A DNA stretch of 45,266 nt from a virus (lineage: Duplodnaviria; Heunggongvirae; Uroviricota; Caudoviricetes), in IMG/VR virus record IMGVR_UViG_2718217897_000001, positions 1 through 45,266 of that record; one strand, written 5' to 3'. Both the position numbers and the translations under genes were made by a program. Positions 898 to 45,227 of this stretch are shown here, piece by piece. The notes under the pieces were generated by a model that saw only the letters and a program-made list of their open reading frames with translations, was not told the DNA's origin and searched no databases. The first letter of the stretch is position 1. Each line of letters begins with the position of its first letter.

Positions 898-2443
898 ATA
901 GTTCCCTCACTTTCATGCGAGTAATAATTTGTAGAAGTTTATCAAGATTATCAAATCTATAGAGATCTAATCGAATGTTGTTTGTTTCCGTCATGCACAT
1001 TTTATTATATTCGTTTTCAATCTTTGGTATGATATAAAAATCAAGAGGTGAAATATTTTGTGAATTCATTCGTATAACAATTGTTATGTCTGCTTTCTGT
1101 GAGTTATCAAACCGGACTTTCCATCTAAGTTTACCTGATTTCATATGTATGCATTTAGTAACAAGGACGGAAATTAAAAACTCATCATTGATGTAAAGCA
1201 TTGGGGCATATTTATACTCGTCTATATGACAGTTGCTTTTTAAAATTTCACCCTTAAAATCCTCAATTATCTCTGAGTAAAATGATCTTAGTGCTTCATT
1301 TATTTTGAGATAGCTGTAATCATGTTCTGGCTTATAACCAATCAAAGTATATGCTCTTAAAAGACCACCAAATCGGGTTCTATAAACAGAAGATGAAGGG
1401 CCTGTATCATCTTCATCAATGATAAAGCCTGATAGTTTTCCATTAGATTCTAATTTTTGTTTTAGTTTTTCTAATAGATCTTCATTAGTCAAATGAATGG
1501 ATCGGAGCTGAATTATTTCTTGAGCTTTATTGTATTTTTTCTTTGAAATAATAGGTTTATATGCCTTGTCACATCTAACCCATTCATGTTTGGGGTTTTT
1601 TACAAGCCTACTTTTTAATTTAGATGAGGTTTTGTTATATATGTTGTTTCCAATATATTTTTCATTTGTCAAAATTTGATGTATTTTTGCACGAGTCCAT
1701 AATGTACCATTTTCTGCAGGTATGTTCTGTTCATTTAATCTCTCAGCAATAATGAATTCTGGGACGTTATTATCTATAAAGAGATCATATATTCTATTTA
1801 CAATTTTTATTTCATTTTTTGGTCCCGGAATTAATATTACCCTATCTGTTTGAATACTCTTTCTTTTGCGGAAACTCAATATTTCTTTAGCTATGCCATT
1901 TTCGTCTACTAAAAGACGTCTCAGCCCATAACCAGCCATACCGCCTTGATGATAACCAAGCTTTATTAAATTTACTTGCCCTATAAATACCTTTTCAGAT
2001 AGATTCCTGCTGTGATATGCAGCACTAGATCTTTTTATATTCAGTATAACAGAGGACTCTAAAGGGAAATCTTTAGTGGGTATAGGTTCGGAACAATATA
2101 TAAGATCTACACCATTTCTCTCAAATAGAAAGGAATAATATGCCGCTTCATCACTATTTTGAAAACGACCAAAACGGCTCACATCATAAAATAATACAGC
2201 CTGTATATCTATTTTCTTTTGTTCTACATCGCTAAGTAACTGCTGCAAAGAATGCCTGCCTACGATACTGACTCCGCTCTTACCTGAATCATCGTAGGTA
2301 TAAGCGATTTCCATATTGTTCTTTTCAGCATAATCTTTGATATATTCGGACTGATTATGTAAAGAATATTGCTGATGGTCGGTAGACATCCTCAAGTACT
2401 GCGCGACCCTAACTCTATGATTTTTGTCATTTTCGCTAGCCAT
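887..2443 (-). CDS. large serine recombinase (resolvase-type catalytic domain plus recombinase domain)
   Basis: 518-aa ORF. N-terminus has the resolvase signature (YLRMSTDHQ with catalytic Ser, later DVSRFGR). Long C-terminal extension typical of large serine recombinases. AT-rich codon usage. Confidence 0.7.
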   Translation of the reverse strand: MASENDKNHRVRVAQYLRMSTDHQQYSLHNQSEYIKDYAEKNNMEIAYTYDDSGKSGVSIVGRHSLQQLLSDVEQKKIDIQAVLFYDVSRFGRFQNSDEAAYYSFLFERNGVDLIYCSEPIPTKDFPLESSVILNIKRSSAAYHSRNLSEKVFIGQVNLIKLGYHQGGMAGYGLRRLLVDENGIAKEILSFRKRKSIQTDRVILIPGPKNEIKIVNRIYDLFIDNNVPEFIIAERLNEQNIPAENGTLWTRAKIHQILTNEKYIGNNIYNKTSSKLKSRLVKNPKHEWVRCDKAYKPIISKKKYNKAQEIIQLRSIHLTNEDLLEKLKQKLESNGKLSGFIIDEDDTGPSSSVYRTRFGGLLRAYTLIGYKPEHDYSYLKINEALRSFYSEIIEDFKGEILKSNCHIDEYKYAPMLYINDEFLISVLVTKCIHMKSGKLRWKVRFDNSQKADITIVIRMNSQNISPLDFYIIPKIENEYNKMCMTETNNIRLDLYRFDNLDKLLQIITRMKVRELYAA

Positions 2444-2725
2444 GCACGAAACCTCATGGATGATTCAATACAATGTAGTGGATAAAATTGATCAAATTTT
2501 AACCGAATTCAACTGTTTTATCATTGATTAGAGCGAATTTGGTAGATCTTCGAGGTGTATGATAATCGAGAAGAGATGTGAATTATTTAGCTGATATGAC
2601 CGACAGCTTTCGTTATGTGGACTCAATGTCCCCATTTGTAAATGGCTATGCTTAGTCCACATAGGTTAATGGTGTGATTATTAATTCTTTAACTAAATCA
2701 AGATAGTTAATCCATCATGGGAGAG

Positions 2726-3955
2726 TTATGCGGCAATAACTTTGCATTTTTGAGACGAAACATAGTCACTCCACCATTGCATGAGAACCACCCGTTCAGT
2801 GAGATACTCTGCACGATTGTAGGCTGCAATTATTTCATCTTTCTTCGAGTGGGCAAGGGCGGCTTCTAAGACATCAGTCCTAAACTTGCCAGACTCCTCA
2901 GCAGCCGTTCTAGCAATGGATCGCATACCGTGAGCTACAAGCTCACCTCCGAAACCCATACGGATTATGGCCGCATTAGCTGTTTGTTCATGCATGTGAT
3001 TGAGTGGAGCTTTGATACTGGGGAACACCCACTCTCTATGCCCGCTGATGACTTTCATTAAATCCAAAACTCGCAAAGCTTCTTTGCTCAGTGGAACTTT
3101 GTGAGGCTTCTTCATTTTCATAAACTCCGCCGGGATGTTCCACATGCCAGTTTCAATATCAATATCTGACCATCTTGTGCGAACAGCTTCACCTGGGCGA
3201 ACCCATGTGAGAAGTTGCCACTCAATCAGTAGCCTTGTTTCCAAACGGATAGAAGCATTGTTTAGAGCAACCAAGAAGCGAGGGAGTTCGGAAGGGGGTA
3301 ATGCTGGCATATTCTGTTTTTTTGGCTTGCTGAACCGTTGCCCCAGGTTGTCTGCCGGGTTGAATTCTATGAGTTCTTCTGTTGCTGCATAGCGGAAAAT
3401 TTCATTCAGGCGGGATATGATGCGGCGAAGTGTTTCAAGGACACCTCGTTTTTCTATGGGTTCTAAATGCTGTTTAAGCATTTTAGGGCGAATCTCCTTA
3501 ATTGGGGTATCACCCAATGTGGAAAAGATATTTCTCTCTAGGCTTCGCCAGATGTCGTTAGCATGATCTTGGGAGATGCCTGACGTTTTGACTTTCTCAT
3601 CAAGCCACTTCTTGGCTACTGCTTGAAATGTATGTTCCGTGGCATCTTTCAGTGCATTGGCTTTTTGGTTGTTATGAACTTGGGGGTCTATACCATTTGT
3701 AAGCAACGACAAGTATTCATCACGTAAAGCTCGTGCCTTCGCAAGTGTAAGGTGAGGATAGGTTCCTAAGCTCACCTTAGTTCGCTTTTTGGTCACAGGC
3801 ACTGCATATCTGAAATACCAATTTTTCTTCCCTCCCTTCGCCAGGGGAGCGATTCGCAACAGCAAACCATCGCCGTCAAAAAGGTTAACCTCTTTTTCGG
3901 CAGGTTTGGTGCTTTTGATTTCAGTGTCAGTGAGCTTCTTAGCGATTTTGGCCAT
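2726..3955 (-). CDS. intA: tyrosine integrase, P4/IntA (CP4-57) family
   Basis: Translation from MAKIAKKLTDTEIK resembles the N-terminus of E. coli IntA/SlpA, with C-terminal HGxRS and AYNR motifs. The ORF track extends to 4036, but the ATG at 3955 is the likelier start. Lies ~165 bp downstream of a displaced ssrA 3'-end copy, as intA does relative to ssrA in K-12. Confidence 0.8.
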   Translation of the reverse strand: MAKIAKKLTDTEIKSTKPAEKEVNLFDGDGLLLRIAPLAKGGKKNWYFRYAVPVTKKRTKVSLGTYPHLTLAKARALRDEYLSLLTNGIDPQVHNNQKANALKDATEHTFQAVAKKWLDEKVKTSGISQDHANDIWRSLERNIFSTLGDTPIKEIRPKMLKQHLEPIEKRGVLETLRRIISRLNEIFRYAATEELIEFNPADNLGQRFSKPKKQNMPALPPSELPRFLVALNNASIRLETRLLIEWQLLTWVRPGEAVRTRWSDIDIETGMWNIPAEFMKMKKPHKVPLSKEALRVLDLMKVISGHREWVFPSIKAPLNHMHEQTANAAIIRMGFGGELVAHGMRSIARTAAEESGKFRTDVLEAALAHSKKDEIIAAYNRAEYLTERVVLMQWWSDYVSSQKCKVIAA

Positions 3956-4052
3956 GTTTGGGACCCTCGATTTTAGGACCCATCTTCGTGGGTCCCATTC
4001 AGGGTGCCATAACTCGTAGTTCTCAGCAATTCTCACTAGACTACAATAGACG

Positions 4053-4086
4053 TAAAAAAGCCCGCAGAGCTTGTGCTGTGCGGGCT
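4053..4086 (-). terminator. rho-independent terminator downstream of the displaced ssrA 3' fragment
   Basis: Stem agcccgca / tgcgggct with an A-run on the plus strand, which is a U-run for a minus-strand transcript. Confidence 0.5.
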
Positions 4087-4121
4087 TAGTAGACTTTACT
4101 GAACTTCAGTACATCAATATT

Positions 4122-4157
4122 TGGTGGAGCTGGCGGGAGTTGAACCCGTGTCTGAAA
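4122..4157 (-). repeat. displaced ssrA 3'-end copy; prophage attachment-site repeat (attR)
   Basis: tggtggagctggcgggagttgaacccgTgtcTgaaa matches the ssrA 3' end at 44865-44900 with 2 mismatches over ~36 nt. Confidence 0.85.
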
Positions 4158-4186: not shown

Positions 4187-4966
4187 TTATCTGAACATGG
4201 CGTTTGCGGCGCTTTTGCGTATCTTCTCTAGACCTTTTGTAGTCCATTTCTCTGGTACAGGTGTAAACCGTAGTGCAAAATCTGCCTCCATATTATCACC
4301 ACTGAAACGTGCCACTCCACGTTCCAATTTTGTTTGCCAAGTGACTTTTTTAGTTTTACCCTCTATATCTTGATATTCAATAATTAATTTTGGACCAGTG
4401 AATGATGAAGAACCGACTAATTTAAGTCTATGTGAAAGATATGCTATATTCAATAGAATATCAATTGCCGCGGTTGGTACAAAAATGTTTTTTGACTTCT
4501 TATCTATACTATATGGTAACGAAAAATCAATATCGTAAGGTGTCGATAAAGTATTGTACATATATACTTTTCTTTCTTTTATTATTTTGAACATTCCATA
4601 CTGGGAGTCGGTTGTAAAAGATTTATCTTCTTTTTTGAATTTTTTCGAAAACAACTCTAAATATAGATTTATGTTTTTTTTATAATTAAAATCCCAATGA
4701 TATCTAAGTGAAATTGCCGCCCCCAATCCTATGTTTGAAAATTTTGTTTGTGGAAGCGTAGGGGCTTGTAAGATATCAACATGAAAACCGTTGAAATCGT
4801 TAACATTCATCTTGATATTTAAAGTGTCTATCACTAAATTGGGTTTATAAGAGAGCCTTCTTTGAAATATCGTTAACCATATTGCATATAATGCAGCAAT
4901 TGCTGAAATGAAAGTACCAACTGAAGATATGTAGGTGATTAGTTTGTCGAATGTAATTGTAATCAA
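4187..4966 (-). CDS. hypothetical membrane-anchored protein (cargo between attR and int)
   Basis: 259-aa ORF with a TTG start and a plausible GGGGA Shine-Dalgarno. One N-terminal hydrophobic helix (ISSVGTFISAIAALYAIWLTIF). Strongly AT-rich versus neighbours. No family recognised. Confidence 0.55.
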   Translation of the reverse strand: MITITFDKLITYISSVGTFISAIAALYAIWLTIFQRRLSYKPNLVIDTLNIKMNVNDFNGFHVDILQAPTLPQTKFSNIGLGAAISLRYHWDFNYKKNINLYLELFSKKFKKEDKSFTTDSQYGMFKIIKERKVYMYNTLSTPYDIDFSLPYSIDKKSKNIFVPTAAIDILLNIAYLSHRLKLVGSSSFTGPKLIIEYQDIEGKTKKVTWQTKLERGVARFSGDNMEADFALRFTPVPEKWTTKGLEKIRKSAANAMFR

Positions 4967-5007: not shown

Positions 5008-6180
5008 TTAATTATGATTATGCAAATGATTTATCGATGTAAAGTTATCATACTCTTTAAGATACGAACCATAGTGCCTGAAAAGCATCTCCGGCCCTTT
5101 ATGCCCCATTTGAGCTGCAAGCCAAAACAGGTTTGCTCCTCGGCTGATATGGCTGGTGGCGAATGTATGCCTGGTTTGATATGGGTTTCTGTAACGAATA
5201 CCTGCTTTTCGCAATGTTGGCACCCATGCTTTTTTCCTAATTGCATCAGCACTTGCCCAAGGCTTATTGGTCTTTGGATCTTCAAAGACAGTAGCATCCT
5301 TCATGAATGTAAATGGCTTCTGATTTATCAGCGCCAACATTGCCTCTTCTGTCAGTTCAACTTTCCGAGTACCTGCTTTTGTCTTTGTCCCTTTGATAAC
5401 ACCGACAACACTTGCGCTCTGGACATGGGCAGTTTTTCCAACAAAGTCGATATCACGCCATCGAAGGGCACATAATTCAGAACTACGCAGGCCTGTATGT
5501 ATAGCGAACCGGAACAGATTTTCCCATTGTTTGTTTCCGGCTGCTGCTAGTAATGCATCAACTTCTGCTGGTGATAGCGGATCAACTACGTAGCTGCTTT
5601 CTGCTTCTGACTTATCACTTTGGTAGCGCGAAGCTGTTACTAACGATACGGGGTTAATTTGAAGTACCCCATCGGTCACGGCTTCATCAAGTGCTGACCG
5701 CAGGAAAGATAACTGGTTGCGAATGGTTTTTAAGGTCGTTTTCTGGCTTTGAATCCACGCTTTCAGGGTTGCTGGTGTTAATTCACTTGCAGGGCAAATG
5801 TGAAGTGAGGCTAACGCACTACGGCATTTTTTATAACCACCGATCGTGGATGGTGAAAGTTTCCTCGTTTCGCAGATTTCAAGGTATTCGTCCAGGTACA
5901 TTTTTACCGTTTTGCCTGCAGCAGCATTACCAAAAATTTTCAAACGAGCAGAACGGGGAAAATATTCCGCATAAATGAATGTTCCCCTTTCGATCTTATT
6001 ATGAATTTCGCCGAGTGTGCGCTCAGCGTATTTAATGTTCTTTGGTGTTACTTCCAGATTGGAAAGAGGCTCACGACATTTAACTCCTTTGTAGGTGAAA
6101 GTTATATTGATCGTTTCGCCCTGGCGGTGTTTCCTGATTGTTACGCCGCGCGGTAGTTTGAGCAGTTTTGTCTGGCCCAT
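5008..6180 (-). CDS. int: phage tyrosine integrase
   Basis: 390 aa. C-terminal catalytic region has R...HxxR...Y-type motifs (YQTRHTFAT, GHKGPEMLFRHYGSY). Adjacent to attR and an excisionase gene. Confidence 0.85.
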   Translation of the reverse strand: MGQTKLLKLPRGVTIRKHRQGETINITFTYKGVKCREPLSNLEVTPKNIKYAERTLGEIHNKIERGTFIYAEYFPRSARLKIFGNAAAGKTVKMYLDEYLEICETRKLSPSTIGGYKKCRSALASLHICPASELTPATLKAWIQSQKTTLKTIRNQLSFLRSALDEAVTDGVLQINPVSLVTASRYQSDKSEAESSYVVDPLSPAEVDALLAAAGNKQWENLFRFAIHTGLRSSELCALRWRDIDFVGKTAHVQSASVVGVIKGTKTKAGTRKVELTEEAMLALINQKPFTFMKDATVFEDPKTNKPWASADAIRKKAWVPTLRKAGIRYRNPYQTRHTFATSHISRGANLFWLAAQMGHKGPEMLFRHYGSYLKEYDNFTSINHLHNHN

Positions 6181-11828: not shown

Positions 11829-12770
11829 ATGAGCACTAAATTAACCGGCTATGTATGGGATGGTTGCGCTGCATCAGGCATGAAATTATCCAGCGTGGCA
11901 ATTATGGCCCGCCTGGCTGATTTCAGTAATGACGAAGGTGTGTGCTGGCCATCAATTGAAACTATTGCCCGTCAGATTGGCGCGGGGATGAGTACCGTCA
12001 GGACGGCTATCGCACGGCTGGAAGCAGAAGGCTGGTTAACGCGTAAGGCGCGTCGCCAGGGTAACCGCAATGCGTCGAATGTTTATCAGCTTAACGTTGC
12101 GAAGCTTCAGGCAGCGGCATTTTCTCAACTGTCAGATTCTGACCCGTCAAAATCTGACGCATCAAAATCTGACCCGTCAAAATTTGATGCGTCGAAATCT
12201 GGCAAAAAAGCGGGTTTTCACCCGTCAGAATCTGGCGGGGATCCGTCAGTAAAATCAAAACATGATCCGTCAGATAAAAAACCTTCTCGTCCGGACGCTT
12301 CGCAACCGGACACGCAGACGGATGAACAGGATTTTTTAACTCGCCATCCTGATGCGGTTGTATTCAGCCCTAAAAAGCGCCAGTGGGGAACGCAGGATGA
12401 TTTGACCTGCGCACAGTGGCTCTGGAAAAAAATCATCGCCCTGTACGAGCAAGCCGCCGAATGTGACGGCGAGGTGGTTCGTCCCAAAGAACCGAACTGG
12501 ACAGCCTGGGCAAACGAAATTCGCCTGATGTGTGTGCAGGATGGTCGTACTCACAAACAAATCTGCGAGATGTACAGCCGCGTCAGCCGCGATCCGTTCT
12601 GGTGCCGTAACGTGCTCAGCCCGTCGAAGTTGCGGGAAAAATGGGATGAGCTTTCCCTGCGCTTATCACCGTCCGTCAGCACGTACACCGAAAAACGCGA
12701 AGACCCGTACTTCAAATCCAGTTACGACAACGTGGACTACAGCCAGATCCCGGCAGGATTCAGGGGGTGA
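11829..12770 (+). CDS. replication initiator (lambda O-like; N-terminal winged HTH) with internal origin iterons
   Basis: 313 aa. N-terminal HTH, then a repeat-encoded SDSDPSKSDASKSDPSKFDASKS segment matching the DNA iterons. Confidence 0.65.
   Translation: MSTKLTGYVWDGCAASGMKLSSVAIMARLADFSNDEGVCWPSIETIARQIGAGMSTVRTAIARLEAEGWLTRKARRQGNRNASNVYQLNVAKLQAAAFSQLSDSDPSKSDASKSDPSKFDASKSGKKAGFHPSESGGDPSVKSKHDPSDKKPSRPDASQPDTQTDEQDFLTRHPDAVVFSPKKRQWGTQDDLTCAQWLWKKIIALYEQAAECDGEVVRPKEPNWTAWANEIRLMCVQDGRTHKQICEMYSRVSRDPFWCRNVLSPSKLREKWDELSLRLSPSVSTYTEKREDPYFKSSYDNVDYSQIPAGFRG
12129..12275. repeat. origin iterons (about 7-8 direct repeats of a CCGTCA(A/G)AATCTG-like unit)
   Basis: Tandem direct repeats visible at 12129-12275 inside the initiator gene, as in lambda ori within O. 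Confidence 0.7.
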
Positions 12771-13261
12771 TCATGAGTCTGTTAAATGACGTTCAGAAAT
12801 TCATTGAAGCCCATCCGGGGTGTACTTCCGGAGACATTGCGGATGCTTTTGCAGGTTACTCACGGCAGCGCGTTCTGCAGTCTGCAAGCAAGTTACGTCA
12901 GAGTGGGCGTGTGGCTCACCGTTGTGAAGGAGATACACGCAGACATTTCCCGCGCCTGACTGAGAGAGCGCAGGAGCCGGAACCACAACCAGTTCGTGAA
13001 ACCAGACCTGTGCGCAATTTCTATGTCGGCACTAACGATCCCCGGGTGATTTTGTGCCTGACCCGCCAGGCGGAAGAACTGGAGTCCAGGGGCTTATACC
13101 GTCGTGCTGCAACGGTGTGGATGGCGGCATTCCGTGAAAGCCACTCCCAGCCAGAACGAAACAATTTTCTGGCGCGTCGTGAGCAGTGTTTACGGAAAAG
13201 CAGCAAGCGCGCTGTATCGAGTGATGAGTGGTATCTGTCAGGGAATTACGTGGGGGCTTAA
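12767..13261 (+). CDS. hypothetical DNA-binding or replication-associated protein
   Basis: 164-aa ORF, translationally coupled. No confident family. Confidence 0.4.
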   Translation: MIMSLLNDVQKFIEAHPGCTSGDIADAFAGYSRQRVLQSASKLRQSGRVAHRCEGDTRRHFPRLTERAQEPEPQPVRETRPVRNFYVGTNDPRVILCLTRQAEELESRGLYRRAATVWMAAFRESHSQPERNNFLARREQCLRKSSKRAVSSDEWYLSGNYVGA

Positions 13262-13914
13262 TGAGTAATAAATATTGCCAGGCGCTGGTGGAACTACGGA
13301 ACAAACCAGCCCATGAACTGAAGGAAGTGGGCGATCAGTGGCGCACGCCGGATAACATTTTCTGGGGAATTAACACTCTGTTTGGCCCGTTTGTTCTGGA
13401 TCTTTTTACTGACGGTGATAACGCCAAATGTGCCGCGTATTACACGGCGGAAGACAACGCGCTGGCGCATGACTGGTCAGAACGTCTTGCGGAGCTTAAA
13501 GGTGCTGCCTTTGGTAATCCCCCATACAGCCGCGCCAGTCAGCATGAGGGGCAATACATCACCGGCATGCGTTACATCATGAAGCATGCCAGTGCCATGC
13601 GTGATAAAGGCGGGCGCTATGTTTTCCTGATCAAAGCTGCCACCAGCGAAGTGTGGTGGCCGGAAGATGCAGATCATATTGCTTTTATTCGCGGGCGTAT
13701 TGGTTTTGAACTGCCTGTCTGGTTTATCCCGAAAGACGAGAAGCAGGTGCCGACAGGCGCTTTCTTCGCTGGTGCTATTGCTGTTTTCGATAAGACCTGG
13801 AAGGGACCGGCAATCAGCTACATCGGGCGCGATGAACTTGAGGCATGTGGTGAGGCGTTTCTGGCGCAGGTTCGCCAGCAGGCGGAAAAACTGGTCAGGG
13901 AGATGGCGGCATGA
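13261..13914 (+). CDS. phage N6-adenine DNA methyltransferase (Dam-type, DPPY family)
   Basis: FGNPPYS motif. ATG at 13261 (MSNKYCQ). Confidence 0.7.
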   Translation: MSNKYCQALVELRNKPAHELKEVGDQWRTPDNIFWGINTLFGPFVLDLFTDGDNAKCAAYYTAEDNALAHDWSERLAELKGAAFGNPPYSRASQHEGQYITGMRYIMKHASAMRDKGGRYVFLIKAATSEVWWPEDADHIAFIRGRIGFELPVWFIPKDEKQVPTGAFFAGAIAVFDKTWKGPAISYIGRDELEACGEAFLAQVRQQAEKLVREMAA

Positions 13915-16823: not shown

Positions 16824-17708
16824 TTATATTGGGCGCTTTGAATTCGATTTAAAGCGTCTTCCACTTATTCCAGAAACCCAAATGTCTTCCTCAAGAAAGT
16901 CAAGAAGGGCTTTTATTTCTTTTTTTGATGAAGGCATGACAATTTTCTCAACACCGCCAACTATTATGGTTTGTAAGGGGAAATTAACTTTAGCAGCTTC
17001 GGATTTAAACTTTGACATATTTTGGGGTGTTAGCATCCCAGTCTGATTTATTAGTGTTACTTTATTTCTTATCACTGTATCTGCAACGGATTTTAGATCA
17101 AAACCTTGGGGAGTAGAAAATACACTAAGTTGACTAAATGCATTAAGTTCTTGGTCAGTAGCAGCAGAAAAATAGGACGACATGTCAAAAATGCTTCTTA
17201 GATTAAAGAAACTCTTAAATCGTATTGTATCATTGATAATTATTGCAACTAGTTTATCATCAACATTAAAACCGATGCTATTAGCTTTACTAAAGGTAGT
17301 TTTGCTTGCAAAAAGCTTTCCAAAGAATGATTTTGAGGTATCTAAGATTTGTTTTTTGTTGAAAGTTTGTAGTGCAATAATATTGGGGTTTGCTGGCGCG
17401 TCAACACCAACAAATAATGCTTTAATATAACCAATATCAATTTGGCTAGGATCCCAGATAGGCACGGCGGTAGGCCTATTGACTGCGTCAATCAGGCGTG
17501 CAGAATCAGTAAAGTTTTGTATTTCAAAACACTCACTATGTTTTGGTGTATAACCGGCATAGAATGGTATCATATTGTTATGATGACTTTCAAAATATTG
17601 ACGCTGTTGTTGGAAAATGGCCGTAACAGAAGTACTTGCTGTTGCATCAAGTTCGACTCTAACAATTCTCGTTGCAATTGTATTATCTATTACTGCAAAA
17701 AGTGCCAT
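16824..17708 (-). CDS. hypothetical 294-aa protein, second gene of the opposite-strand cargo operon
   Basis: Starts 5 bp after the stop of the upstream membrane-protein gene, with an AAAGGA Shine-Dalgarno. AT-rich. No family recognised. Confidence 0.6.
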   Translation of the reverse strand: MALFAVIDNTIATRIVRVELDATASTSVTAIFQQQRQYFESHHNNMIPFYAGYTPKHSECFEIQNFTDSARLIDAVNRPTAVPIWDPSQIDIGYIKALFVGVDAPANPNIIALQTFNKKQILDTSKSFFGKLFASKTTFSKANSIGFNVDDKLVAIIINDTIRFKSFFNLRSIFDMSSYFSAATDQELNAFSQLSVFSTPQGFDLKSVADTVIRNKVTLINQTGMLTPQNMSKFKSEAAKVNFPLQTIIVGGVEKIVMPSSKKEIKALLDFLEEDIWVSGISGRRFKSNSKRPI

Positions 17709-17713
17709 GGTTA

Positions 17714-18235
17714 TTATCCTTTAACATGTAGAAATGTGTAGTCTGTTAATTGAATAACTGTAAATTTGATATCTTTAATATCAGTAATAACTGATTTAGA
17801 AATCAATACAAAACCTACGCCGGTGTCATCTTCAGCTTCGTAAAATTTATAACCGATAAGTGACAATACTGGGTTAAAGTTATAGTTCTCGGAAAAGCTG
17901 ATGTAAAATAACAATGATAAATAAAAGAATAACGCATATGCTTTATTTTCAGCAATAGAATCTGTTCCTAGGAGAGGGAATAAATAGCTTAAGAAATAAT
18001 TAGTTACTTCTTTGTTAGCGGGAGAAACTGAACTAATATTTTTTGTCAGAGGTTCAAGTTGTTTCTCAGCATATTGAATCAGGCCTATTGCTAATAACCA
18101 ACTTGCTATGCCAACGCATAAGCTATATTGCATCAGCCAAACCGTATCTTTTACATATCCAATAAAAAATAGAGTTGCGCAAACAGGTGCAATTGAGCTG
18201 GCTGTTAATAATAAGCGTGCTAATTTGTTCATCAT
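17714..18235 (-). CDS. hypothetical multi-pass membrane protein (3-4 predicted TM helices), first gene of the cargo operon
   Basis: 173 aa. Hydrophobic segments at about residues 8-28, 35-55, 78-92 and 99-115. ATG at 18235 with an AAAGGA Shine-Dalgarno. AT-rich. Confidence 0.6.
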   Translation of the reverse strand: MMNKLARLLLTASSIAPVCATLFFIGYVKDTVWLMQYSLCVGIASWLLAIGLIQYAEKQLEPLTKNISSVSPANKEVTNYFLSYLFPLLGTDSIAENKAYALFFYLSLLFYISFSENYNFNPVLSLIGYKFYEAEDDTGVGFVLISKSVITDIKDIKFTVIQLTDYTFLHVKG

Positions 18236-37977: not shown

Positions 37978-38577
37978 ATGCATCGCATAGACACTAAAAC
38001 CGCGCAGAAGGATAAGTTCGGCGCGGGTAAGAACGGTTTTACTCGTGGTAACCCCCAGACCGGCACACCTGCCACCGATCTGGATGATGACTACTTTGAT
38101 ATGTTGCAGGAAGAACTCTGCAGCGTGGTGGAGGCATCCGGTGCCAGCCTGGAGAAGGCGCGGCACGACCAGTTGCTTACCGCGCTTCGTGCGCTGCTGT
38201 TAAGCCGCAAGAATCCGTTTGGCGATATCAAATCGGATGGCACGGTGAAAACGGCTCTCGAAAACCTTGGTTTAAGAGCAAGCGGGCAGTACACCGATAA
38301 TTTGTTATTTACAGGTCCTGATGGTCTTAAGATTCAGGTGTTTCGCCGGACGCTCGCAAATTTGACTACTGTCGGTGTAGTAAATTCTGTGCCAGTGACT
38401 TTCCCTGTCCCGTTCCCTGTTAATTGCTGGGGCGTTTTTTCTACCAAATTAACATGGGTTCAGATAACTAACTCATGCGAGTGGGTAAGCAATACAGGAT
38501 TTACCGCTCAGGTCATGATGAATATTGCTGTAAATACAAACACCTCAGACGCTATGTTTTTAGCTATAGGATATTAA
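37978..38577 (+). CDS. tail fibre protein (constant N-terminus fused to the currently expressed variable C-terminus)
   Basis: N-terminus [26 protein letters not shown] typical of e14/Mu/P2 tail fibres. The crossover site lies inside the gene at ~38255-38280. Confidence 0.8.
38255..38280. repeat. invertase crossover site, left (gix/pix-like)
   Basis: Near-palindromic ctctcgaaaacc-tt-ggtttaagagc resembling Din-invertase recombination sites. Confidence 0.6.
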
Positions 38578-38578
38578 T

Positions 38579-39019
38579 ATGAATCGTTTTGTGTTCAGTC
38601 CATCTGAGTCCCGTTTTTATGCCATCGAGTGGCAGGCTGATTATGTTGATAATAATTGTTGGCCACATGATGCCATTAACGTTAGTGACAGCATTTATTA
38701 TGAGTTTTCCGGCACTCCCCCTACAGGTAAGCAACTTATAACTTTAAATAACATGCCAGCATGGGGTGATATTCCTCCACCTACACGAGAAGAATTAATT
38801 GTCGCTGCTGATGTGGAGAAGCAAAAAAGAATAGATTTAGCCAATGATTACATGAACGGTAAGCAATGGCCTGGTAAAGCAGCTATTGGTCGTCTGAAAG
38901 GTGAGGAACTGGCACAATATAATTTGTGGCTGGATTATCTGGACGCACTGGAGCTGGTCGATACCGCCAGTGCGCCAGATATTGAATGGCCTACGCCTCC
39001 GGCAGTTCAGGCCAGATGA
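38579..39019 (+). CDS. tail fibre assembly protein
   Basis: 146 aa, conserved C-terminal WPTPP-type motif. Confidence 0.7.
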   Translation: MNRFVFSPSESRFYAIEWQADYVDNNCWPHDAINVSDSIYYEFSGTPPTGKQLITLNNMPAWGDIPPPTREELIVAADVEKQKRIDLANDYMNGKQWPGKAAIGRLKGEELAQYNLWLDYLDALELVDTASAPDIEWPTPPAVQAR

Positions 39020-39593
39020 CATCCGGCGCGGTGCTGGTATCTGTTGCCGTCACCGCGTCAATGTAATCCAGCACAGTGTTAAGGCTGGTTGTTTCTGCCT
39101 GCGTCAGTTTACGTCCGGCCTGCAATTTCAGCTGAATCAGACTGATTGAAGCCATTGCAGTATCAATCAGTGACTGGCGCTGTGCTTCTGCTGCATCTAC
39201 TGCGGCGCTATGCTGTGCTTCGGTATCCGTCACCCATTTCTCACCATCCCATTTATCGTATGGCGTTAACGGGGCGATAGTGGTTGTATTATCAGGGTAA
39301 TCACCCGGAACTGTGATTTCTTTTGATTCTCCTGTTTCGGTGCTAAAGACGATTTCACCGCGATGGTCTGGCACATATTCCCATGAGTTAAAATCTACAG
39401 ATCGGCAGATTGCATAACCAGCTTTGTATGTGCCAGGGGCATCTAAACAGGAATATGCAGGGATACCGACACCAACGGCAAGATATTCAGTTGATGTGGA
39501 AATATATTCCCGTGTTTCGCCATCATAGTTATAGACGGTAATATTCCCCGCCTTTGTAGCAATAAACTCGCTATTTAATACAGCGTTATCCAT
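38991..39593 (-). CDS. alternative tail fibre assembly protein (inverted set)
   Basis: 200 aa, C-terminal VIWPELP motif. Confidence 0.7.
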   Translation of the reverse strand: MDNAVLNSEFIATKAGNITVYNYDGETREYISTSTEYLAVGVGIPAYSCLDAPGTYKAGYAICRSVDFNSWEYVPDHRGEIVFSTETGESKEITVPGDYPDNTTTIAPLTPYDKWDGEKWVTDTEAQHSAAVDAAEAQRQSLIDTAMASISLIQLKLQAGRKLTQAETTSLNTVLDYIDAVTATDTSTAPDVIWPELPEA

Positions 39594-40093
39594 TATGCAG
39601 CCCTCACGATATAGTTAAATGCAATATTCCGTGGACGGGTTTCATTTATCCCATATGCTGTTGTTCTCTGATTCCCGACAAAATATCCATTTGGATTAGA
39701 AGATACAGAATAATCATCAAAATCAAGTGGGCTATCAGCACCCGGCGTCAGGCTTGCAATATATCCTCTTCCCATAACTTCTGATGCTGGTATTTCTTTT
39801 GTACGATAATCACTAACTCTGAAGAGCTGCCCTTGGTGGGTGTGTGATTCCACTCCTCCATTCTGAAGACTTAGCAAGGCACGTACAGCATCAATACCAC
39901 GCCCGTCATCCCAGCCACGAATAAACTCACCACGTAAATCAGGCAATTTATTTGTCGGATAAGCCTTTGCCAGTTCCGGGTATTCTTCAGCAGAAAAAGC
40001 GGCACCGTTGCATTTCAGCCAGCCTGTTGGCGGAGTGGCTGAAGGCCACGGAACAGGCACCCCAACCGGTAATGCAGAGCCTTCTCCCAAACC
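39593..40093 (-). CDS. alternative tail fibre C-terminal segment, silent in this orientation
   Basis: ORF runs up to the right crossover site and has no independent start. Contains the receptor-binding-tip-like PVGVPVPWP ... GWLKCNG motif. The NVGLGEGS junction is compatible with fusion after ENLGL of the constant part. Confidence 0.65.
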   Translation of the reverse strand, partial: GLGEGSALPVGVPVPWPSATPPTGWLKCNGAAFSAEEYPELAKAYPTNKLPDLRGEFIRGWDDGRGIDAVRALLSLQNGGVESHTHQGQLFRVSDYRTKEIPASEVMGRGYIASLTPGADSPLDFDDYSVSSNPNGYFVGNQRTTAYGINETRPRNIAFNYIVRAA

Positions 40094-40106
40094 AACGTTT
40101 ATGAAA
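40081..40106. repeat. invertase crossover site, right
   Basis: ttctcccaaacc-aa-cgtttatgaaa, in inverted orientation relative to the left site. Confidence 0.55.
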
Positions 40107-40161
40107 ATGCAGAAATAACGAGCAAATGGCATCATTCCTGCTTTTGTCAGAGGGATCCACT

Positions 40162-40716
40162 ATGCTTATTGGCTATGTACGCGTATCAACAAATGACCAG
40201 AACACCGATCTACAACGTAATGCGTTGAACTGTGCAGGATGTGAGCTGATTTTTGAAGACAAGATAAGCGGTACAAAGTCCGACAGACCAGGACTGAAAA
40301 AGCTGCTCAGGACATTATCGGCAGGTGACACGCTGGTGGTCTGGAAACTGGACCGACTGGGACGCAGTATGCGGCATCTTGTCGTGCTGGTGGAGGAGTT
40401 GCGCGAACGAGGCATCAACTTTCGTAGTCTGACGGATTCAATTGATACCAGTACCCCAATGGGGCGCTTTTTCTTTCATGTGATGGGTGCCCTGGCTGAA
40501 ATGGAGCGTGAACTGATTGTTGAACGAACAAAAGCTGGACTGGAAGCAGCTCGCGCACAGGGACGAATTGGTGGACGTCGCCCCAAACTTACACCAGAAC
40601 AATGGGAGCAGGCCGGACGATTAATTGCATCAGGCGTTCCTCGCCAGAAGGTGGCGATCATCTATGATGTTGGTATATCGACACTGTATAAGAAGTTTCC
40701 GGTCGGAGATAAATGA
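40162..40716 (+). CDS. pin: Pin/Gin/Hin-family serine DNA invertase
   Basis: MLIGYVRVSTNDQ N-terminus with catalytic Ser. 184 aa from the ATG at 40162. C-terminal HTH. Confidence 0.9.
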   Translation: MLIGYVRVSTNDQNTDLQRNALNCAGCELIFEDKISGTKSDRPGLKKLLRTLSAGDTLVVWKLDRLGRSMRHLVVLVEELRERGINFRSLTDSIDTSTPMGRFFFHVMGALAEMERELIVERTKAGLEAARAQGRIGGRRPKLTPEQWEQAGRLIASGVPRQKVAIIYDVGISTLYKKFPVGDK

Positions 40717-40776: not shown

Positions 40777-41646
<870 letters not shown>

Positions 41647-41737: not shown

Positions 41738-41761
41738 GAAAACCGTAGGCACGTAGTATGC
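41738..41761. repeat. direct repeat copy 2 flanking the GIY-YIG gene
   Basis: See copy 1; about 21 of 24 positions shared. Confidence 0.5.
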
Positions 41762-41953
41762 GTTAATTTATGAGCAAACTACTTGTCTGCTGTTTTTCTG
41801 TCATTAGTCGTATATAGAATGATTCTCTATGCCTAACAAAGCATCACTAGTGCTAGATTACGTTGTAGTCACTGTTTAAATATCCAGACAAAACATTTCC
41901 TTCTGGGTTGAATGAGTGATAGAGTTTCACCCATTAGACCCCTTGGAGGAATT

Positions 41954-43387
41954 ATGTCTGAATTTGAAGTGTTGGCACAGCATCTGCTGAAGGAAGCCGA
42001 GGCGGAAGAAAAGCTGCGACAGGAAAATGATAAAAAGCTTATCGAGAAAGTGCTGGAAATCTATGATCAGAAGTATGTGGCTGAATTACTGAGAAAAGTC
42101 GGAAAAAATGAGTGGAGCCGTGAAACCATTAACCGCTGGATTAATGGCAAGTGTTTACCAAAATCGTTGACGTCAGTAGAAGAGTCTCTTCTGCGTAAGA
42201 TGCTACCAGAACCACCTGCAAACCATCCGGAATATGCTTTCCGCTTCATTGACTTATTTGCTGGAATTGGAGGGATACGAAAAGGTTTTGAGGCTATTGG
42301 AGGCCAGTGTGTTTTTACCAGTGAATGGAATAAAGATGCTGTGCGTACATACAAGGCCAACTGGTTTAACGATGAACAGGTGCATAAATTCAATCTCGAT
42401 ATTCGGGAAGTCACGTTGAGTGATAAAACCGATGTATTGGAAACGGATGCTTATGCATATATTGATGAGCATGTGCCGGATCATGATGTGCTTCTTGCGG
42501 GGTTCCCGTGCCAGCCATTTAGTCTTGCTGGTGTTAGTAAGAAAAACTCACTTGGCCGTGCGCATGGTTTTGAATGTGAAGCACAAGGAACACTTTTTTT
42601 TGACGTGGCACGTATTATACGAGCAAAAAAACCGGCAATTTTTGTGCTGGAAAATGTCAAAAATCTGAAGAGCCATGATAAGGGTAAAACTTTCAAAGTC
42701 ATTATGGAGACCCTTGACGAGCTGGGCTACGAAGTTGCCGATGCTGCAGAAATGGGAAAAAACGATCCAAAGATTATCGATGGGAAGCATTTTTTGCCTC
42801 AGCATCGTGAACGCATTGTTCTGGTCGGATTTAGACGAGATCTGAATATTCACAAGGGGTTTACCTTGCGTGATATCAGTCGTTTTTATCCGGAACACCG
42901 CCCATCATTTGGTGAATTGCTGGAGCCTGTAGTCGACAGTAAATATATACTTACGCCAAAACTATGGGAGTACCTTTATAACTACGCCAAAAAGCATGCA
43001 GCCAAGGGGAATGGTTTTGGCTTTGGGTTGGTCAATCCTGAGAATAAGGAAAGCATTGCACGCACACTTTCTGCCAGATATCACAAAGACGGATCAGAAA
43101 TTCTTATTGATCGTGGTTGGGATATGGCAACGGGAGAGGCTGACTTTATGAATGAGAGTAATCAGGCTCGTCGACCACGCAGGCTGACTCCCCGAGAGTG
43201 CGCACGCCTTATGGGATTTGAAAAACCTGGAGGGAAACCATTCCGTATTCCGGTTTCAGATACTCAGTCATATCGGCAGTTCGGTAACTCAGTTGTGGTG
43301 CCAGTATTTGAAGCTGTTGCCAGACTTCTGGAACCCTATATCCTCAAAGCTGTTTCTGCTGATGCTGGTAAGACTGGGCAGCCTTGA
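41954..43387 (+). CDS. DNA cytosine-5 methyltransferase, Dcm/M.EcoRII-like (CCWGG specificity inferred)
   Basis: Motif [18 protein letters not shown], motif [13 protein letters not shown], motif [11 protein letters not shown], motif [12 protein letters not shown]. Near-collinear with E. coli Dcm as recalled. ATG at 41954 after GGAGGA; the track ORF starts at 41912. Confidence 0.85.
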
Positions 43388-43421
43388 GAACACCTCCCGG
43401 CCTTTTAAGCCGGGAGTCAGC

Positions 43422-44636
43422 CTATGATAGTTCAGCGTAAAGCTCTATCAGCTCAGTAATGAATGCTCCGAGCGTTATTAATTCTTCTCTAACTGCTTCT
43501 GGGTATTTTTTATGTAAAGTTGATGGTACAACGAGTCTGACACCCGCATCTTTCATTTCTCGGTATTGTGCTGAAGAAACACCTTCTTGCAGTGTAAATA
43601 AATGTACCTGATGGATTTTATCTGCTTCATTCAGTATCTGACGCCAGCGATCTTTGCAGGTGGTCTTTACTGCCAGCATACGTAAGTTTTCTACAGGAAA
43701 TTCAACGTTATGATATGCCTCTGCTGAAGGAAACAGGAAATCTGGTTTTTTATTACCTTCAGTAACTGCCTGAGTGGAGAAATGCCGTAGTCCGTGCTCG
43801 ATAAAAAGCTTCTCTAGGTGAAGTTCAAGTGATTTGCCTGCCCTTGATTTACGTCGATTACTGACAGAGTTGGCTAATGCAATAAACTCATCTACAGAAT
43901 CGAATCCTTTCTTAATAATATCAAGAACATGTAATTCCTCGACGAGTAGAAAAATATCATACTCGACACGCCGACGGTCAATCAGTTGCTCATCTGGATC
44001 CTTGGAGTTTTTAGCATAATGGCCAGCAGCATATTGAATAATTTCGTTTCCAGAAGGAAAACGCTTCTTCCAGTCTTCAGGAATAACATATTTATGATTT
44101 ACTGGAGTTTGCTGAAGAGATAATCCGCCCAAAATTTGTCCGGCAGGGCCGGAAATTAGGGTTCCAGGTATGATTTCGCCAATAGCAGACTCGATGATAT
44201 CCTCTTCATCGGGATTGACGCAGACCCATATATCTACCTCGGAACAGTCAGTGTTCTGTTCGTTTAACCTGAAAGCAAGAATTGTGAGAGCTCCTGTATT
44301 TTCAGGGTTCTGTAATGGACTTCCTCTCCCCCAGCGCGTAATTCTTTTTTCGTTTCGGGTCTTACCAAAATAACGGTTGTTGTAATAAATTGCGCGTGCT
44401 TGGGTATCTGGGCAATCATGGGATGATACATGCGCAGTAAGGAAGACTGAAGGGTTCAGTTCGCGAGTATGATTGATAGATGGAAAAAGCTTTTCAACGA
44501 TATTTGAGGGGATATAAAGTCCGACCTGATGGCCACCTGTTGCGCCAGTGTCGTTTGCAGAAAGGCGTTTGATGTAGATAAAGTAATTCCCGCTTGCGAT
44601 ATCAAGCAGCCAGTTATGAAAAACCGACATATACAT
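43422..44636 (-). CDS. EcoRII-like type IIE restriction endonuclease
   Basis: 404 aa, convergent with a Dcm-like methyltransferase, which is the known EcoRII R-M arrangement. Sequence resembles EcoRII as recalled. Confidence 0.7.
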   Translation of the reverse strand: MYMSVFHNWLLDIASGNYFIYIKRLSANDTGATGGHQVGLYIPSNIVEKLFPSINHTRELNPSVFLTAHVSSHDCPDTQARAIYYNNRYFGKTRNEKRITRWGRGSPLQNPENTGALTILAFRLNEQNTDCSEVDIWVCVNPDEEDIIESAIGEIIPGTLISGPAGQILGGLSLQQTPVNHKYVIPEDWKKRFPSGNEIIQYAAGHYAKNSKDPDEQLIDRRRVEYDIFLLVEELHVLDIIKKGFDSVDEFIALANSVSNRRKSRAGKSLELHLEKLFIEHGLRHFSTQAVTEGNKKPDFLFPSAEAYHNVEFPVENLRMLAVKTTCKDRWRQILNEADKIHQVHLFTLQEGVSSAQYREMKDAGVRLVVPSTLHKKYPEAVREELITLGAFITELIELYAELS

Positions 44637-44710
44637 CCCTTTGTTAGCATACAGTCAGGGTTAACATTTTTCCATAGTTATAGATAAGCGGCTAGGAACT
44701 TAAGGGAAAA

Positions 44711-44740
44711 ACAAAAAGCCCGCATAAGCGGGCTTTTGTG
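44711..44740 (-). terminator. bidirectional rho-independent terminator between ssrA and the prophage
   Basis: agcccgc ataa gcgggct stem-loop with T-runs on both sides. Confidence 0.6.
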
Positions 44741-44864
44741 TCACTCGGGAGCCGCGGCTCCTTTGCGTATCCTTTTTTGTCTCCTCACCGTCTGGTCAGT
44801 GTCCTGCTGAGACTGCTAACTTCCTGTTTTTGTTGGTGTTGTCCTTACACCGTCCAATCATGAT

Positions 44865-44900
44865 TGGTGGAGCTGGCGGGAGTTGAACCCGCGTCCGAAA
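44865..44900 (-). repeat. attachment-site repeat within the ssrA 3' end (attL)
   Basis: Matches 4122-4157. Confidence 0.85.
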
Positions 44901-45227
44901 TTCCTACATCCTCGGTACTACATGCTTAGTCAGTCTTTATATTCGCTTGCCAGCTGCGGACGGACACGCCACTAACAAACTAGCCTGATTAAGTTTTAAC
45001 GCTTCAACCCCAGGCAGGGCTTCCACGCGATCTCTTTTGGGTTTGACCTCTCTTGATCCCCGTCCTAAGAGCGGAGGCTAGGGAGAGAGGGCTCTAAGCA
45101 GGTTATTAAGCTGCTAAAGCGTAGTTTTCGTCGTTTGCGACTATTTTTTGCGGCTTTTTACGAGGCCAACCGCCCCTCGGCATGCACCTTGGGTTTCGCA
45201 AATCCCGTCGAATCCAGAATCAGCCCC
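44865..45227 (-). ncRNA. ssrA: tmRNA (SsrA), intact, 363 nt
   Basis: Reverse complement begins GGGGCTGATTCTGGATTCGACGGG and ends CCCGCCAGCTCCACCA. Encodes the ANDENYALAA tag region (gcaaacgacgaaaactacgctttagcagcttaa). Confidence 0.97.

Follow-up and report, generated by a model that had tools for sequence, protein, structure and literature searches.

A window of 45,266 nucleotides, the whole stretch analysed here (IMG/VR record IMGVR_UViG_2718217897_000001, Caudoviricetes), carries beside ssrA a cytosine methyltransferase gene (M) and a second gene (R) that a first-pass annotation had read as a prophage-borne EcoRII-like restriction-modification (R-M) system. This raises the question of whether the pair is complete, whether it belongs to the phage, and what it could do in a species whose chromosomal Dcm belongs to the same methyltransferase family as M and presumably has the same CCWGG target. 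We conclude that the locus is very probably a complete EcoRII-type (CCWGG, type IIE) R-M cassette and accessory cargo of a temperate phage that itself appears complete.

The methyltransferase and endonuclease genes

M and R are convergent, with a stop-to-stop gap of 34 nt, and both open reading frames lie where they were first placed (Table 1). The description of M as a Dcm-like enzyme with canonical motifs holds equally: we found motifs I (FAGIG), IV (PCQ), VI (ENV), VIII (QHRER), IX (RECAR) and X (GNSV), together with matches to Pfam DNA_methylase (E 4e-78) and DNA_meth_N (E 7e-27), to the NCBIfam family PRK10458 DNA cytosine methylase (927 bits) and to the Shigella Dcm structure 3ME5 (E 4e-209). 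M shares 91% amino acid identity with plasmid M.EcoRII, and the stretch between motifs VIII and IX is near invariant. The N-terminal domain of M.EcoRII mediates autorepression (Som & Friedman 1994, according to a summary passage in PMC12707154). By analogy, the N-terminal domain of M would repress the promoter of its own gene, and the conserved region upstream of M, with its inverted repeat, may serve as the operator.

The first-pass annotation had called R an EcoRII from its length and sequence, and profile searches bear this out: R matches Pfam EcoRII-N (PF09217; E 4e-61, profile positions 5-152 of 154) and EcoRII-C (PF09019; E 2e-71, the whole profile, 1-165 of 165), although no NCBIfam family was matched, and aligns without gaps from end to end with the crystallised EcoRII (PDB 1NA6; 347/403 identical residues, 86-87%, E 3e-243). 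A comparison with the residues described for EcoRII (PMC2770665) showed that the following are all identical in R: 1) the catalytic residues E271, D299, K324 and E337, as aligned with 1NA6; 2) the recognition residues of the C-domain, N260, K328, D329 and R330; 3) the N-domain contacts N28, H36, Q37, Y41, R81, Y85, K92, T93, R94, E96, R98, T100 and R101. A check for missing domains or inactivating mutations found both domains present and the frame free of frameshifts and stops. The length of 404 aa given earlier is that of the open reading frame; the start is likely to be the ATG at 44630, a choice favoured by PGAP as well as by the Shine-Dalgarno spacing. Purifying selection on both genes is strong, with a dN/dS of 0.033 for M and 0.047 for R, each over a saturated dS of ~1.7.

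With identities of 87-91%, CCWGG is the probable specificity of both enzymes. M would methylate the inner cytosine of this site and so protect the DNA from R, an effect that in the native strain would be hidden by host Dcm. The gapless 86% identity to 1NA6 points to two-site allosteric cleavage of unmethylated CCWGG by R: R is predicted to be a dimer in which the N-terminal effector domains autoinhibit the C-terminal PD-(D/E)XK core, and binding of a second unmethylated CCWGG would lift the autoinhibition and allow unmethylated CCWGG DNA to be cut.

Table 1. Features of the window that bear on the R-M cassette and its prophage
Feature	Position	Strand	Details
Distal att copy, displaced ssrA 3' fragment, other prophage boundary	4121-4157	.	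35/37 identical to 44864-44900
Prophage tyrosine integrase	5008-6180	-	Pfam Arm-DNA-bind_2 and Phage_integrase; PGAP "site-specific integrase" in the identical GPEC1035 prophage
Phage N6-adenine (Dam-type) methyltransferase, early region, unpaired	13261-13914	+	Pfam Dam E 1e-45; PADLOC MTase_II; PGAP name
Kiwa defence system	16824-18235	-	KwaA 17714-18235, KwaB 16824-17708; Q-to-lysis moron slot
Tail-fibre, tail-fibre-assembly and pin genes	37978-40716		Pfam / PGAP
Pin-type serine invertase of the tail-fibre switch	40126-40716	+	Pfam Resolvase and HTH_7; PGAP pinE
PD-T4-3 / CMoRE, GIY-YIG type IV restriction endonuclease	40777-41550	-	Divergent from M, between pin and M
EcoRII-type R-M cassette (M promoter, M, R, R promoter)	41872-44698	.	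2.8 kb unit homologous to plasmid EcoRII
M promoter and putative operator region	41872-41953	+	Kept relative to plasmid ecoRIIM; inverted repeat CCAGA-N13-TCTGG (alignment)
M, C5 cytosine methyltransferase, M.EcoRII/Dcm family, N-terminal repressor-type domain	41954-43387	+	477 aa
R, EcoRII-type type IIE restriction endonuclease	43422-44636	-	404 aa from the ORF; 402 aa from ATG 44630
GC-rich hairpin and U-tract UUUUUGUUUUU, intrinsic terminator for ssrA read-through	44714-44737	-	Terminator scan
att core, ssrA 3' end, prophage junction beside R-M	44864-44900	.	Direct repeat, 37 nt
ssrA (tmRNA)	44865-45227	-	

The prophage and its cargo slot

The pair had been placed inside the prophage, and it does lie between the att repeats at 4121-4157 and 44864-44900, the former lying between two integrases, that of the prophage and a P4-type one from a second island. 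No third att copy separates R-M from the tail genes, whether searched for with as many as 3 mismatches or with a 12-nt seed. The pair was also tried as a separate island, a reading that was dropped with att repeats found solely at these two places. The junction beside the pair is attL in the chromosomal orientation, as first named; by the lambda convention, in which attL adjoins int, it is attR. The prophage at the ssrA 3' end is apparently complete, with regulatory, lysis, head and tail modules all present among ~60 phage genes, and it is of an e14/SfV-like type; its contractile tail is Mu-like, its head of the HK97 type and its regulation lambdoid. In the identical prophage copy of GPEC1035 a single gene, a hypothetical one, is frameshifted. 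The 259-aa ORF at 4187-4966 has no NCBIfam family match. CCWGG sites in the prophage number 88 against 131 expected, a mild deficit.

The first-pass reading is sound in its R-M and prophage parts, including the phage Dam, which both Pfam and PGAP recognise; it is incomplete in that two defence loci were missed. The pair does follow the tail-fibre and pin genes, with a further gene in between. This gene matches PADLOC PD-T4-3 (E 3e-140, profile 1-255 of 256) and Pfam LEM-3_GIY-YIG, has no NCBIfam family match, and its product is ~98% identical over 258 aa to the crystallised CMoRE of E. coli O157:H7 (9U75; E 2e-172). It combines near identity to a characterised protein with the CMoRE architecture of a GIY-YIG nuclease and a C-terminal domain sensing modified cytosine. 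CMoRE cleaves 5hmC/5ghmC DNA and spares 5mC and C (PMC12923530). The second is Kiwa (PADLOC KwaA E 2e-83 and KwaB E 2e-150; Pfam KwaB).

The cassette is a discrete cargo in a replaceable slot between the tail-fibre/pin module and the attachment site. In a blastn comparison with pCP53-92k the aligned part is exactly 41872-44698, at 79% nucleotide identity. The slot flanks at 41761 and 44696 are shared with a prophage of E. coli A32, in which other cargo sits between them; occupants of the same region in related prophages are an acyltransferase (IAI39, AH02) and an ImmA/IrrE-HTH-BRO-N set (A32). The GC content of the cassette is 43%, against 50% for the entire prophage, and it holds neither vsr nor any further gene, merely short overlapping ORFs lacking support. 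Of the bidirectional terminator said to insulate the pair from ssrA, the hairpin (fold energy -22.3 kcal/mol, z -3.9) and leftward termination stand; bidirectionality does not, since the terminator scan did not report the hairpin on the + strand, and it is a good terminator only for leftward transcription out of ssrA. The segment 44706-44864 also adjoins ssrA in many genomes without R-M; hence the hairpin belongs to the att-proximal phage arm and not to the cassette.

Distribution and likely role

Of 5426 complete E. coli genomes, 260 (~5%) carry the M-R pair, which RefSeq labels as methyltransferase and type II endonuclease; among the carriers are STEC O103:H2 as well as IAI39 and CE10, two ExPEC strains. 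As RefSeq already annotates the pair in these genomes, its novelty had at first been overrated. In the complete-genome set 251 chromosome or plasmid records hold the pair at 99% identity or more, and in just 128 of the 260 carrier genomes is R next to ssrA. A tblastn search of plasmids found R at 80-90% identity on 2039 of them; three phage-like circles were the only ones with the 99% allele. The CMoRE-M-R block is present in 33 IMG/VR viral contigs and in a lambda-like prophage; M is frameshifted in three of the 33 copies and R in one, leaving R intact in 32. In three circular phage-like records of 30-44 kb, the 43.7-kb circles included, the block is joined to an int-DinI module; these circles represent a related phage whose integrase differs. 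The AH02 circular record has no match to the ssrA core, and its junction has a degenerate ssrA-like sequence and, after it, a DinI-int module of a different kind; hence it is not simply the excised prophage, and its reading as the plain excised form was rejected. Among the cultured phages of INPHARED the pair is absent, megablast giving only an 85-nt match to the att arm; the tblastn matches among cultured phages were all distant and comprised KL3 gp45 (for the C-domain alone) and two faecal contigs. Our literature searches turned up no account of EcoRII carried in E. coli by a prophage or at ssrA. Mentions of EcoRII in E. coli methylome papers concern plasmids or Dcm.

Nearly all complete E. 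coli genomes, 5366 of the 5426, have a dcm match; the lysogens AR_0013 and 2 HS-C have two dcm-like places each among the matches listed. As this near-universal host methylase acts on the same site, phage DNA would arrive pre-protected, and lysogenisation could proceed without a dangerous establishment phase. R would then act chiefly on DNA entering without Dcm-type methylation or with incomplete methylation. Together with the neighbouring CMoRE, the cassette would attack invaders with unmodified or hypermodified cytosine (T-even hmC/ghmC) and spare the 5mC-marked DNA of the lysogen. EcoRII restricts conjugating plasmids only if they come from dcm- donors (PMC11602122), and the defensive gain in a Dcm+ species may be small, given that plasmids from dcm+ donors were not restricted in that work. 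Should the frameshifts in the IMG/VR copies prove genuine, the pair would be under less than absolute selection.

A further proposal, which we advance tentatively and consider possible rather than probable, is that CMoRE, M and R form a co-selected mobile "cytosine surveillance" block, with EcoRII directed against unmodified CCWGG, CMoRE against hmC/ghmC, and 5mC as the mark of self. The three genes might pass together from one temperate phage to another at the tail-fibre/attP hotspot, across unrelated kinds (the Mu-like-tailed myoviruses at ssrA and lambda-like siphoviruses integrated elsewhere), with host Dcm making establishment cost-free and M dispensable, which would fit those copies in which M is frameshifted and R is intact. 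At least two phage backbones combine CMoRE with M-R, and it is this co-occurrence that suggests the two may be functionally linked.

The pair could instead be mainly a selfish addiction module: on loss of the prophage M would be diluted, the chromosome would be cut by the R that is left, and this post-segregational killing would stabilise the prophage and explain the survival of R-M beside ssrA after phage decay. Such killing by type II R-M systems, EcoRII among them, is given as established in passages of PMC3874152 and PMC2993543, and M-R does outlast the phage: an IS3-family element cuts the IAI39 prophage short and CMoRE-M-R is still there, and in FAM21845 M-R alone is left, between IS elements and adjoining ssrA, with no phage genes. 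However, mere distance from IS-mediated deletions could explain this survival equally well, chromosomal dcm modifies the same site, and a statement in PMC11602122, made there with a reference, reports that Dcm protects against killing after EcoRII loss. We therefore regard addiction as unlikely and, given the prevalence of dcm, restriction of DNA lacking Dcm methylation as most likely the main role.

Less likely still is that the genes are intact yet silent or decaying cargo, with R unexpressed or inactive and M duplicating Dcm, for instance to methylate fast-replicating phage DNA fully. The R promoter region is only partly conserved relative to plasmid EcoRII, and a promoter scan found no consensus sigma-70 site upstream of R; lone phage methyltransferases are common, this phage having an unpaired Dam of its own, and a few copies of M or R are frameshifted. 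Against this, the low dN/dS of R over a saturated dS speaks for long-term selection on the nuclease itself, all its catalytic and recognition residues are kept, nearly all IMG/VR copies of R are intact, and the pair is almost identical across the 251 records. That R-M is part of a fixed chromosomal island at ssrA, which the prophage just adjoins, is very improbable, for despite the phage-free pair of FAM21845 and the tandem second integrase island at the other end of the window, no att copy lies between the pair and the tail genes, the block recurs in the 43.7-kb circles and in prophages away from ssrA, and the IMG/VR prophage calls stop ~630 nt past R.

As phage-borne cargo, the cassette means that a textbook plasmid system also circulates on temperate coliphages; R-M, a type IV nuclease and Kiwa together give the lysogen a multi-layer defence set. 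Carrier strains may restrict DNA made in dcm- cloning hosts and may, via CMoRE, resist T-even therapeutic phages. They also offer a natural test case for the behaviour of R-M where the host already has an isospecific orphan methylase. Current concepts are left unchanged by an EcoRII-type prophage cassette.

Relation to known systems

The closest relative is the EcoRII system of IncN and other enterobacterial plasmids (R structures PDB 1NA6, 3HQF and 3HQG), with which the cassette shares gene sizes (404/477 aa), the convergent layout with a gap of ~34 nt, the N-terminal repressor domain of M, a two-domain R with identical catalytic, recognition and effector residues, and conserved proximal promoter regions, that of R only in part. 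It differs in sequence (86-87% amino acid identity for R and 91% for M, ~79% at the nucleotide level, dS saturated) and in residing on temperate phages in the E. coli chromosome. Chromosomal Dcm is more remote: M has ~69% nucleotide identity to dcm and is paired with a nuclease, whereas Dcm is an orphan, and in contrast to the association of Dcm with Vsr no vsr follows M, which ends 34 nt from the stop of R. The P2-like Burkholderia phage KL3, with gp45/Dcm, is likewise a temperate phage with an EcoRII-related nuclease, as described in a passage of PMC3091744; however, gp45 aligns with R over the catalytic C-domain alone (39% identity, residues 171-397) and is without the effector domain.

With respect to its position, the locus resembles the attP-side cargo slots of SfV/e14-like and lambdoid phages, being the same kind of variable low-GC module between tail-fibre genes and attachment site, but it holds a classical type II R-M system and a type IV nuclease. 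The gtr/oac loci of SfV and the defence hotspots of P2/P4 may be comparable cargo sites. The locus is thus a new, diverged, phage-borne allele of a well-known system.

Integrity and identity of the gene pair

The first-pass annotation had read the right end of the prophage as carrying a complete EcoRII-type restriction-modification system, made up of a Dcm-like cytosine-5 methyltransferase gene (M) and a gene for the cognate endonuclease (R). Both ORFs are found where it placed them, convergent, with 34 nt separating their stop codons. From the ATG chosen there M has 477 aa, and a longer in-frame ORF begins at 41912 (+). For R, a suitably spaced Shine-Dalgarno sequence (AAAGGGA-5 nt-ATG) and the 1209-nt gene annotated by PGAP both favour a start at the third codon (44630).

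R matches the Pfam domains EcoRII-N (E 4e-61) and EcoRII-C (E 2e-71), both at full length, and a phmmer search against PDB aligned its residues 1-403 to residues 1-403 of EcoRII (1NA6, E 3e-243) with 347 of 403 positions identical and no gaps; the 56 differences include the crystal's engineered R88A, at which the window protein has the wild-type Arg. Comparison with the residues named for EcoRII by Golovenko et al. (PMC2770665) showed that R is identical at: 1) the catalytic Glu271, Asp299, Lys324 and Glu337; 2) Asn260, Lys328, Asp329 and Arg330, used by the C-domain in CC:GG recognition; and 3) the N-domain contacts Asn28, His36, Gln37, Tyr41, Arg81, Tyr85, Lys92, Thr93, Arg94, Glu96, Arg98, Thr100 and Arg101.

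M contains the Pfam domains DNA_methylase (E 4e-78) and DNA_meth_N (E 7e-27), belongs to the NCBIfam subfamily PRK10458 'DNA cytosine methylase' (927 bits; cut-off 710) and matches the Dcm crystal structure 3ME5 (E 4e-209). Its motifs, FAGIG (I), PCQ (IV), ENV (VI), QHRER (VIII), RECAR (IX) and GNSV (X), bear out the canonical set ascribed to it. It aligns without gaps at 91% identity to the 477-aa M.EcoRII of plasmid pCP53-92k, and the interval between motifs VIII and IX, which contains the target-recognition domain, is nearly invariant. Set against the plasmid allele, R has a dN/dS of 0.047 and M one of 0.033, at a dS of about 1.7: purifying selection has been strong across a long divergence, and the pair is therefore no recent copy of the IncN-type genes. 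With the domains full-length, the residues identical and the genes under such selection, neither the missing domains nor the inactivating mutations that would have undone the EcoRII assignment are present.

A discrete cassette near the ssrA junction

The 3' end of ssrA (tmRNA predicted by ARAGORN; tag ANDENYALAA) is repeated directly over 37 nt, 35 of them identical, at the far side of the prophage. As the two copies flank the pair and no further copy occurs in the window, M and R lie inside the prophage, at its late-gene end after the tail-fibre and pin genes and beside the ssrA junction, as had been proposed. The rest of the element encodes CI/Cro-type regulators, replication genes, Q, holin, endolysin, terminase, an HK97-type head, a Mu-like contractile tail with baseplate, and an invertible tail-fibre segment with pin; the Dam methyltransferase previously noted is also confirmed. 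The copy in E. coli GPEC1035 is 100% identical across window 21000-45000, and PGAP marks a single frameshifted gene, a hypothetical one, in that prophage.

Features of the window discussed in the text
Feature	Position	Strand	Remark
ParB/RepB-like gene	1-897		far left of second island
Large serine recombinase	887-2443		next after P4-type integrase
P4-type integrase	2726-4036		adjoins displaced ssrA 3' fragment
Distal att repeat	4121-4157		displaced ssrA 3' fragment
259-aa ORF	4187-4966	-	between prophage integrase and distal att copy
Tyrosine integrase	5008-6180		inside att-bounded prophage
Repeat array	12117-12239		within replication-region gene 11829-12770
Dam methyltransferase	13261-13914		Pfam Dam, E 1e-45
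KwaB (Kiwa)	16824-17708	-	between antiterminator Q and holin gene
KwaA (Kiwa)	17714-18235	-	between antiterminator Q and holin gene
CMoRE (PD-T4-3)	40777-41550	-	GIY-YIG protein, divergent from M
M	41954-43387	+	477 aa
R	43422-44636	-	404 aa
Hairpin	44714-44737		-22 kcal/mol on either strand
ssrA-proximal att repeat	44864-44900		ssrA 3' end
ssrA	44865-45227	-	tmRNA

A blastn alignment with plasmid-borne EcoRII spans exactly 41872-44698 at 79% nucleotide identity, taking in about 85 nt 5' of M, with a conserved inverted repeat CCAGA-N13-TCTGG, and about 60 nt 5' of R, where a TATAAC/TATAAT element is conserved. A related prophage of E. coli A32 has the flanking sequence in common with this one, on the left as far as 41761 and on the right starting at 44696, and carries ImmA/IrrE, HTH and BRO-N genes in the same slot. 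The exact alignment ends and these flanks together show that the system forms a separate module of 2.8 kb, sitting in a slot whose cargo can be exchanged. At 43% GC it lies below the prophage (50%) and the structural genes (56%).

A bidirectional terminator had been suggested to insulate the pair from ssrA. The hairpin exists and folds on both strands (z about -3.5 to -3.9), but a strong U-tract, UUUUUGUUUUU, follows it on the - strand only, the one strand reported by the terminator scan and the direction of transcripts leaving ssrA toward R. Because segment 44706-44864 adjoins ssrA in many genomes lacking the system (blast matches H50-H73), and also accompanies the block in A32 and ECO20, the hairpin is part of the att-proximal phage arm, and we reject a dedicated insulator; plausibly it terminates ssrA transcription once the phage has integrated and keeps read-through from reaching R.

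To the left of the prophage, window 1-4157 (GC 37%) is a second ssrA-type island in tandem; the corresponding GPEC1035 flank differs and has a P4-like satellite that carries HEPN and DUF262 genes. Searches of Pfam, PADLOC and NCBIfam gave no match for the 259-aa ORF, which lies across attP from the R-M genes and may be an additional cargo gene. The repeat array, six TCAAAATCTGACCCG-like repeats at 15-nt spacing, looks like an iteron-type origin. CCWGG is mildly under-represented in the prophage (4121-44900), with 88 sites where a third-order Markov estimate predicts about 131, and only 2 lie within the cassette.

Linked defence genes and distribution

Two further defence systems had escaped the first-pass annotation. 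Directly upstream of M lies a gene matching the PADLOC model PD-T4-3 (E 3e-140), whose product shares about 98% of its residues with E. coli O157:H7 CMoRE (crystal structure 9U75), a type IV restriction endonuclease that degrades 5hmC and glucosyl-5hmC DNA, spares 5mC and unmodified cytosine, and blocks T2, T4 and T6 (PMC12923530). Since CMoRE ignores 5mC, it is compatible with an EcoRII-type R within one cell, and on their predicted specificities the two are complementary in target range; their pairing may be selected or simply positional. The second system, Kiwa, occupies a moron slot; the related circular phage record AH02 has a serine protease at this place.

Counting the pair as present where 80% or more of a 3-kb query was covered, we recovered it from 260 of 5426 complete E. 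coli genomes, 243 of which have the whole CMoRE-M-R block (as do about 29 of 33 IMG/VR loci). R directly adjoins full-length ssrA in 128 genomes, and in 110 the pair comes with 80% or more of the 24-kb late region; in 251 chromosome or plasmid records the pair is at least 99% identical. In IAI39 an IS3-family element truncates the prophage, leaving baseplate genes, an acyltransferase, CMoRE and the pair, and in FAM21845 the pair is the sole remnant, between IS elements and ssrA. The block also travels on other backbones: in ECO20 (locus L008, 6059-10177) it ends, with a 200-nt terminator arm, a lambda-like prophage (J, Lom, side tail fibre) situated near vat and not beside ssrA, and three circular 'plasmid' records of 30-44 kb are related phage genomes in which another DinI-integrase module adjoins it, the junction in AH02 (43.7 kb) being a degenerate ssrA-like core, TGGTGGGGGACGGAGTTGAGACCGC.

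IMG/VR contains 33 viral contigs in which the R allele is at least 95% identical, on two types of backbone, one marked by pin and baseplate J, the other by a divergent gene for tail-fibre assembly. M is frameshifted with R intact in three copies (L106, L113, L122) and R in one (L123). These may be draft-assembly errors; if true, loss of M would fit redundancy with host Dcm, which modifies the same site. A tblastn search of plasmids gave 2039 records in which R is 80-90% identical, most of them conjugative plasmids from Klebsiella and Escherichia. The match in E. coli plasmid CP088867.1 (23252-24449, 77.6% nucleotide identity) covers the R gene only, with no methyltransferase under it, and may be a solitary EcoRII-like nuclease relying on chromosomal Dcm. 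Among GTDB species representatives the family is spread through Enterobacterales, with identities reaching 88%, and less similar members occur far outside that order; the 99% allele was found in no other representative.

Host Dcm and relation to known systems

By analogy with characterised homologues, M would methylate the inner C of CCWGG and regulate its own expression through an N-terminal repressor domain, as summarised for M.EcoRII in PMC12707154 (Som and Friedman 1994), and R would rest in an autoinhibited state, cleaving unmethylated CCWGG once a second site is bound by its effector domain. In 5366 of the 5426 genomes a dcm homologue of about 69% nucleotide identity is detected; some lysogens, AR_0013 among them, show two dcm-like places. 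In published experiments EcoRII restricts conjugating plasmids only from donors without dcm, and Dcm is stated to protect cells from killing after EcoRII loss (PMC11602122). It follows that a phage-borne system can establish in E. coli without risk, that a role as an addiction module is unlikely, and that the pair should act on DNA arriving unmethylated or under-methylated at CCWGG.

The intact genes, conserved residues, purifying selection, cassette boundaries and prophage linkage are shown directly, and the reading of a complete, phage-borne EcoRII-type system is real and correct. The pair is already known to RefSeq under generic annotation in hundreds of genomes, and our literature searches returned no paper describing a prophage- or ssrA-borne EcoRII pair in E. 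coli; the present analysis adds how the cassette is built, its association with CMoRE across phage backbones and the load of several defence systems borne by the prophage. No cultured phage in INPHARED carries the pair, the nearest protein there, Burkholderia phage KL3 gp45, having the catalytic domain only, in contrast to the two-domain R of the window. The pair is a diverged, phage-borne allele of the textbook system.
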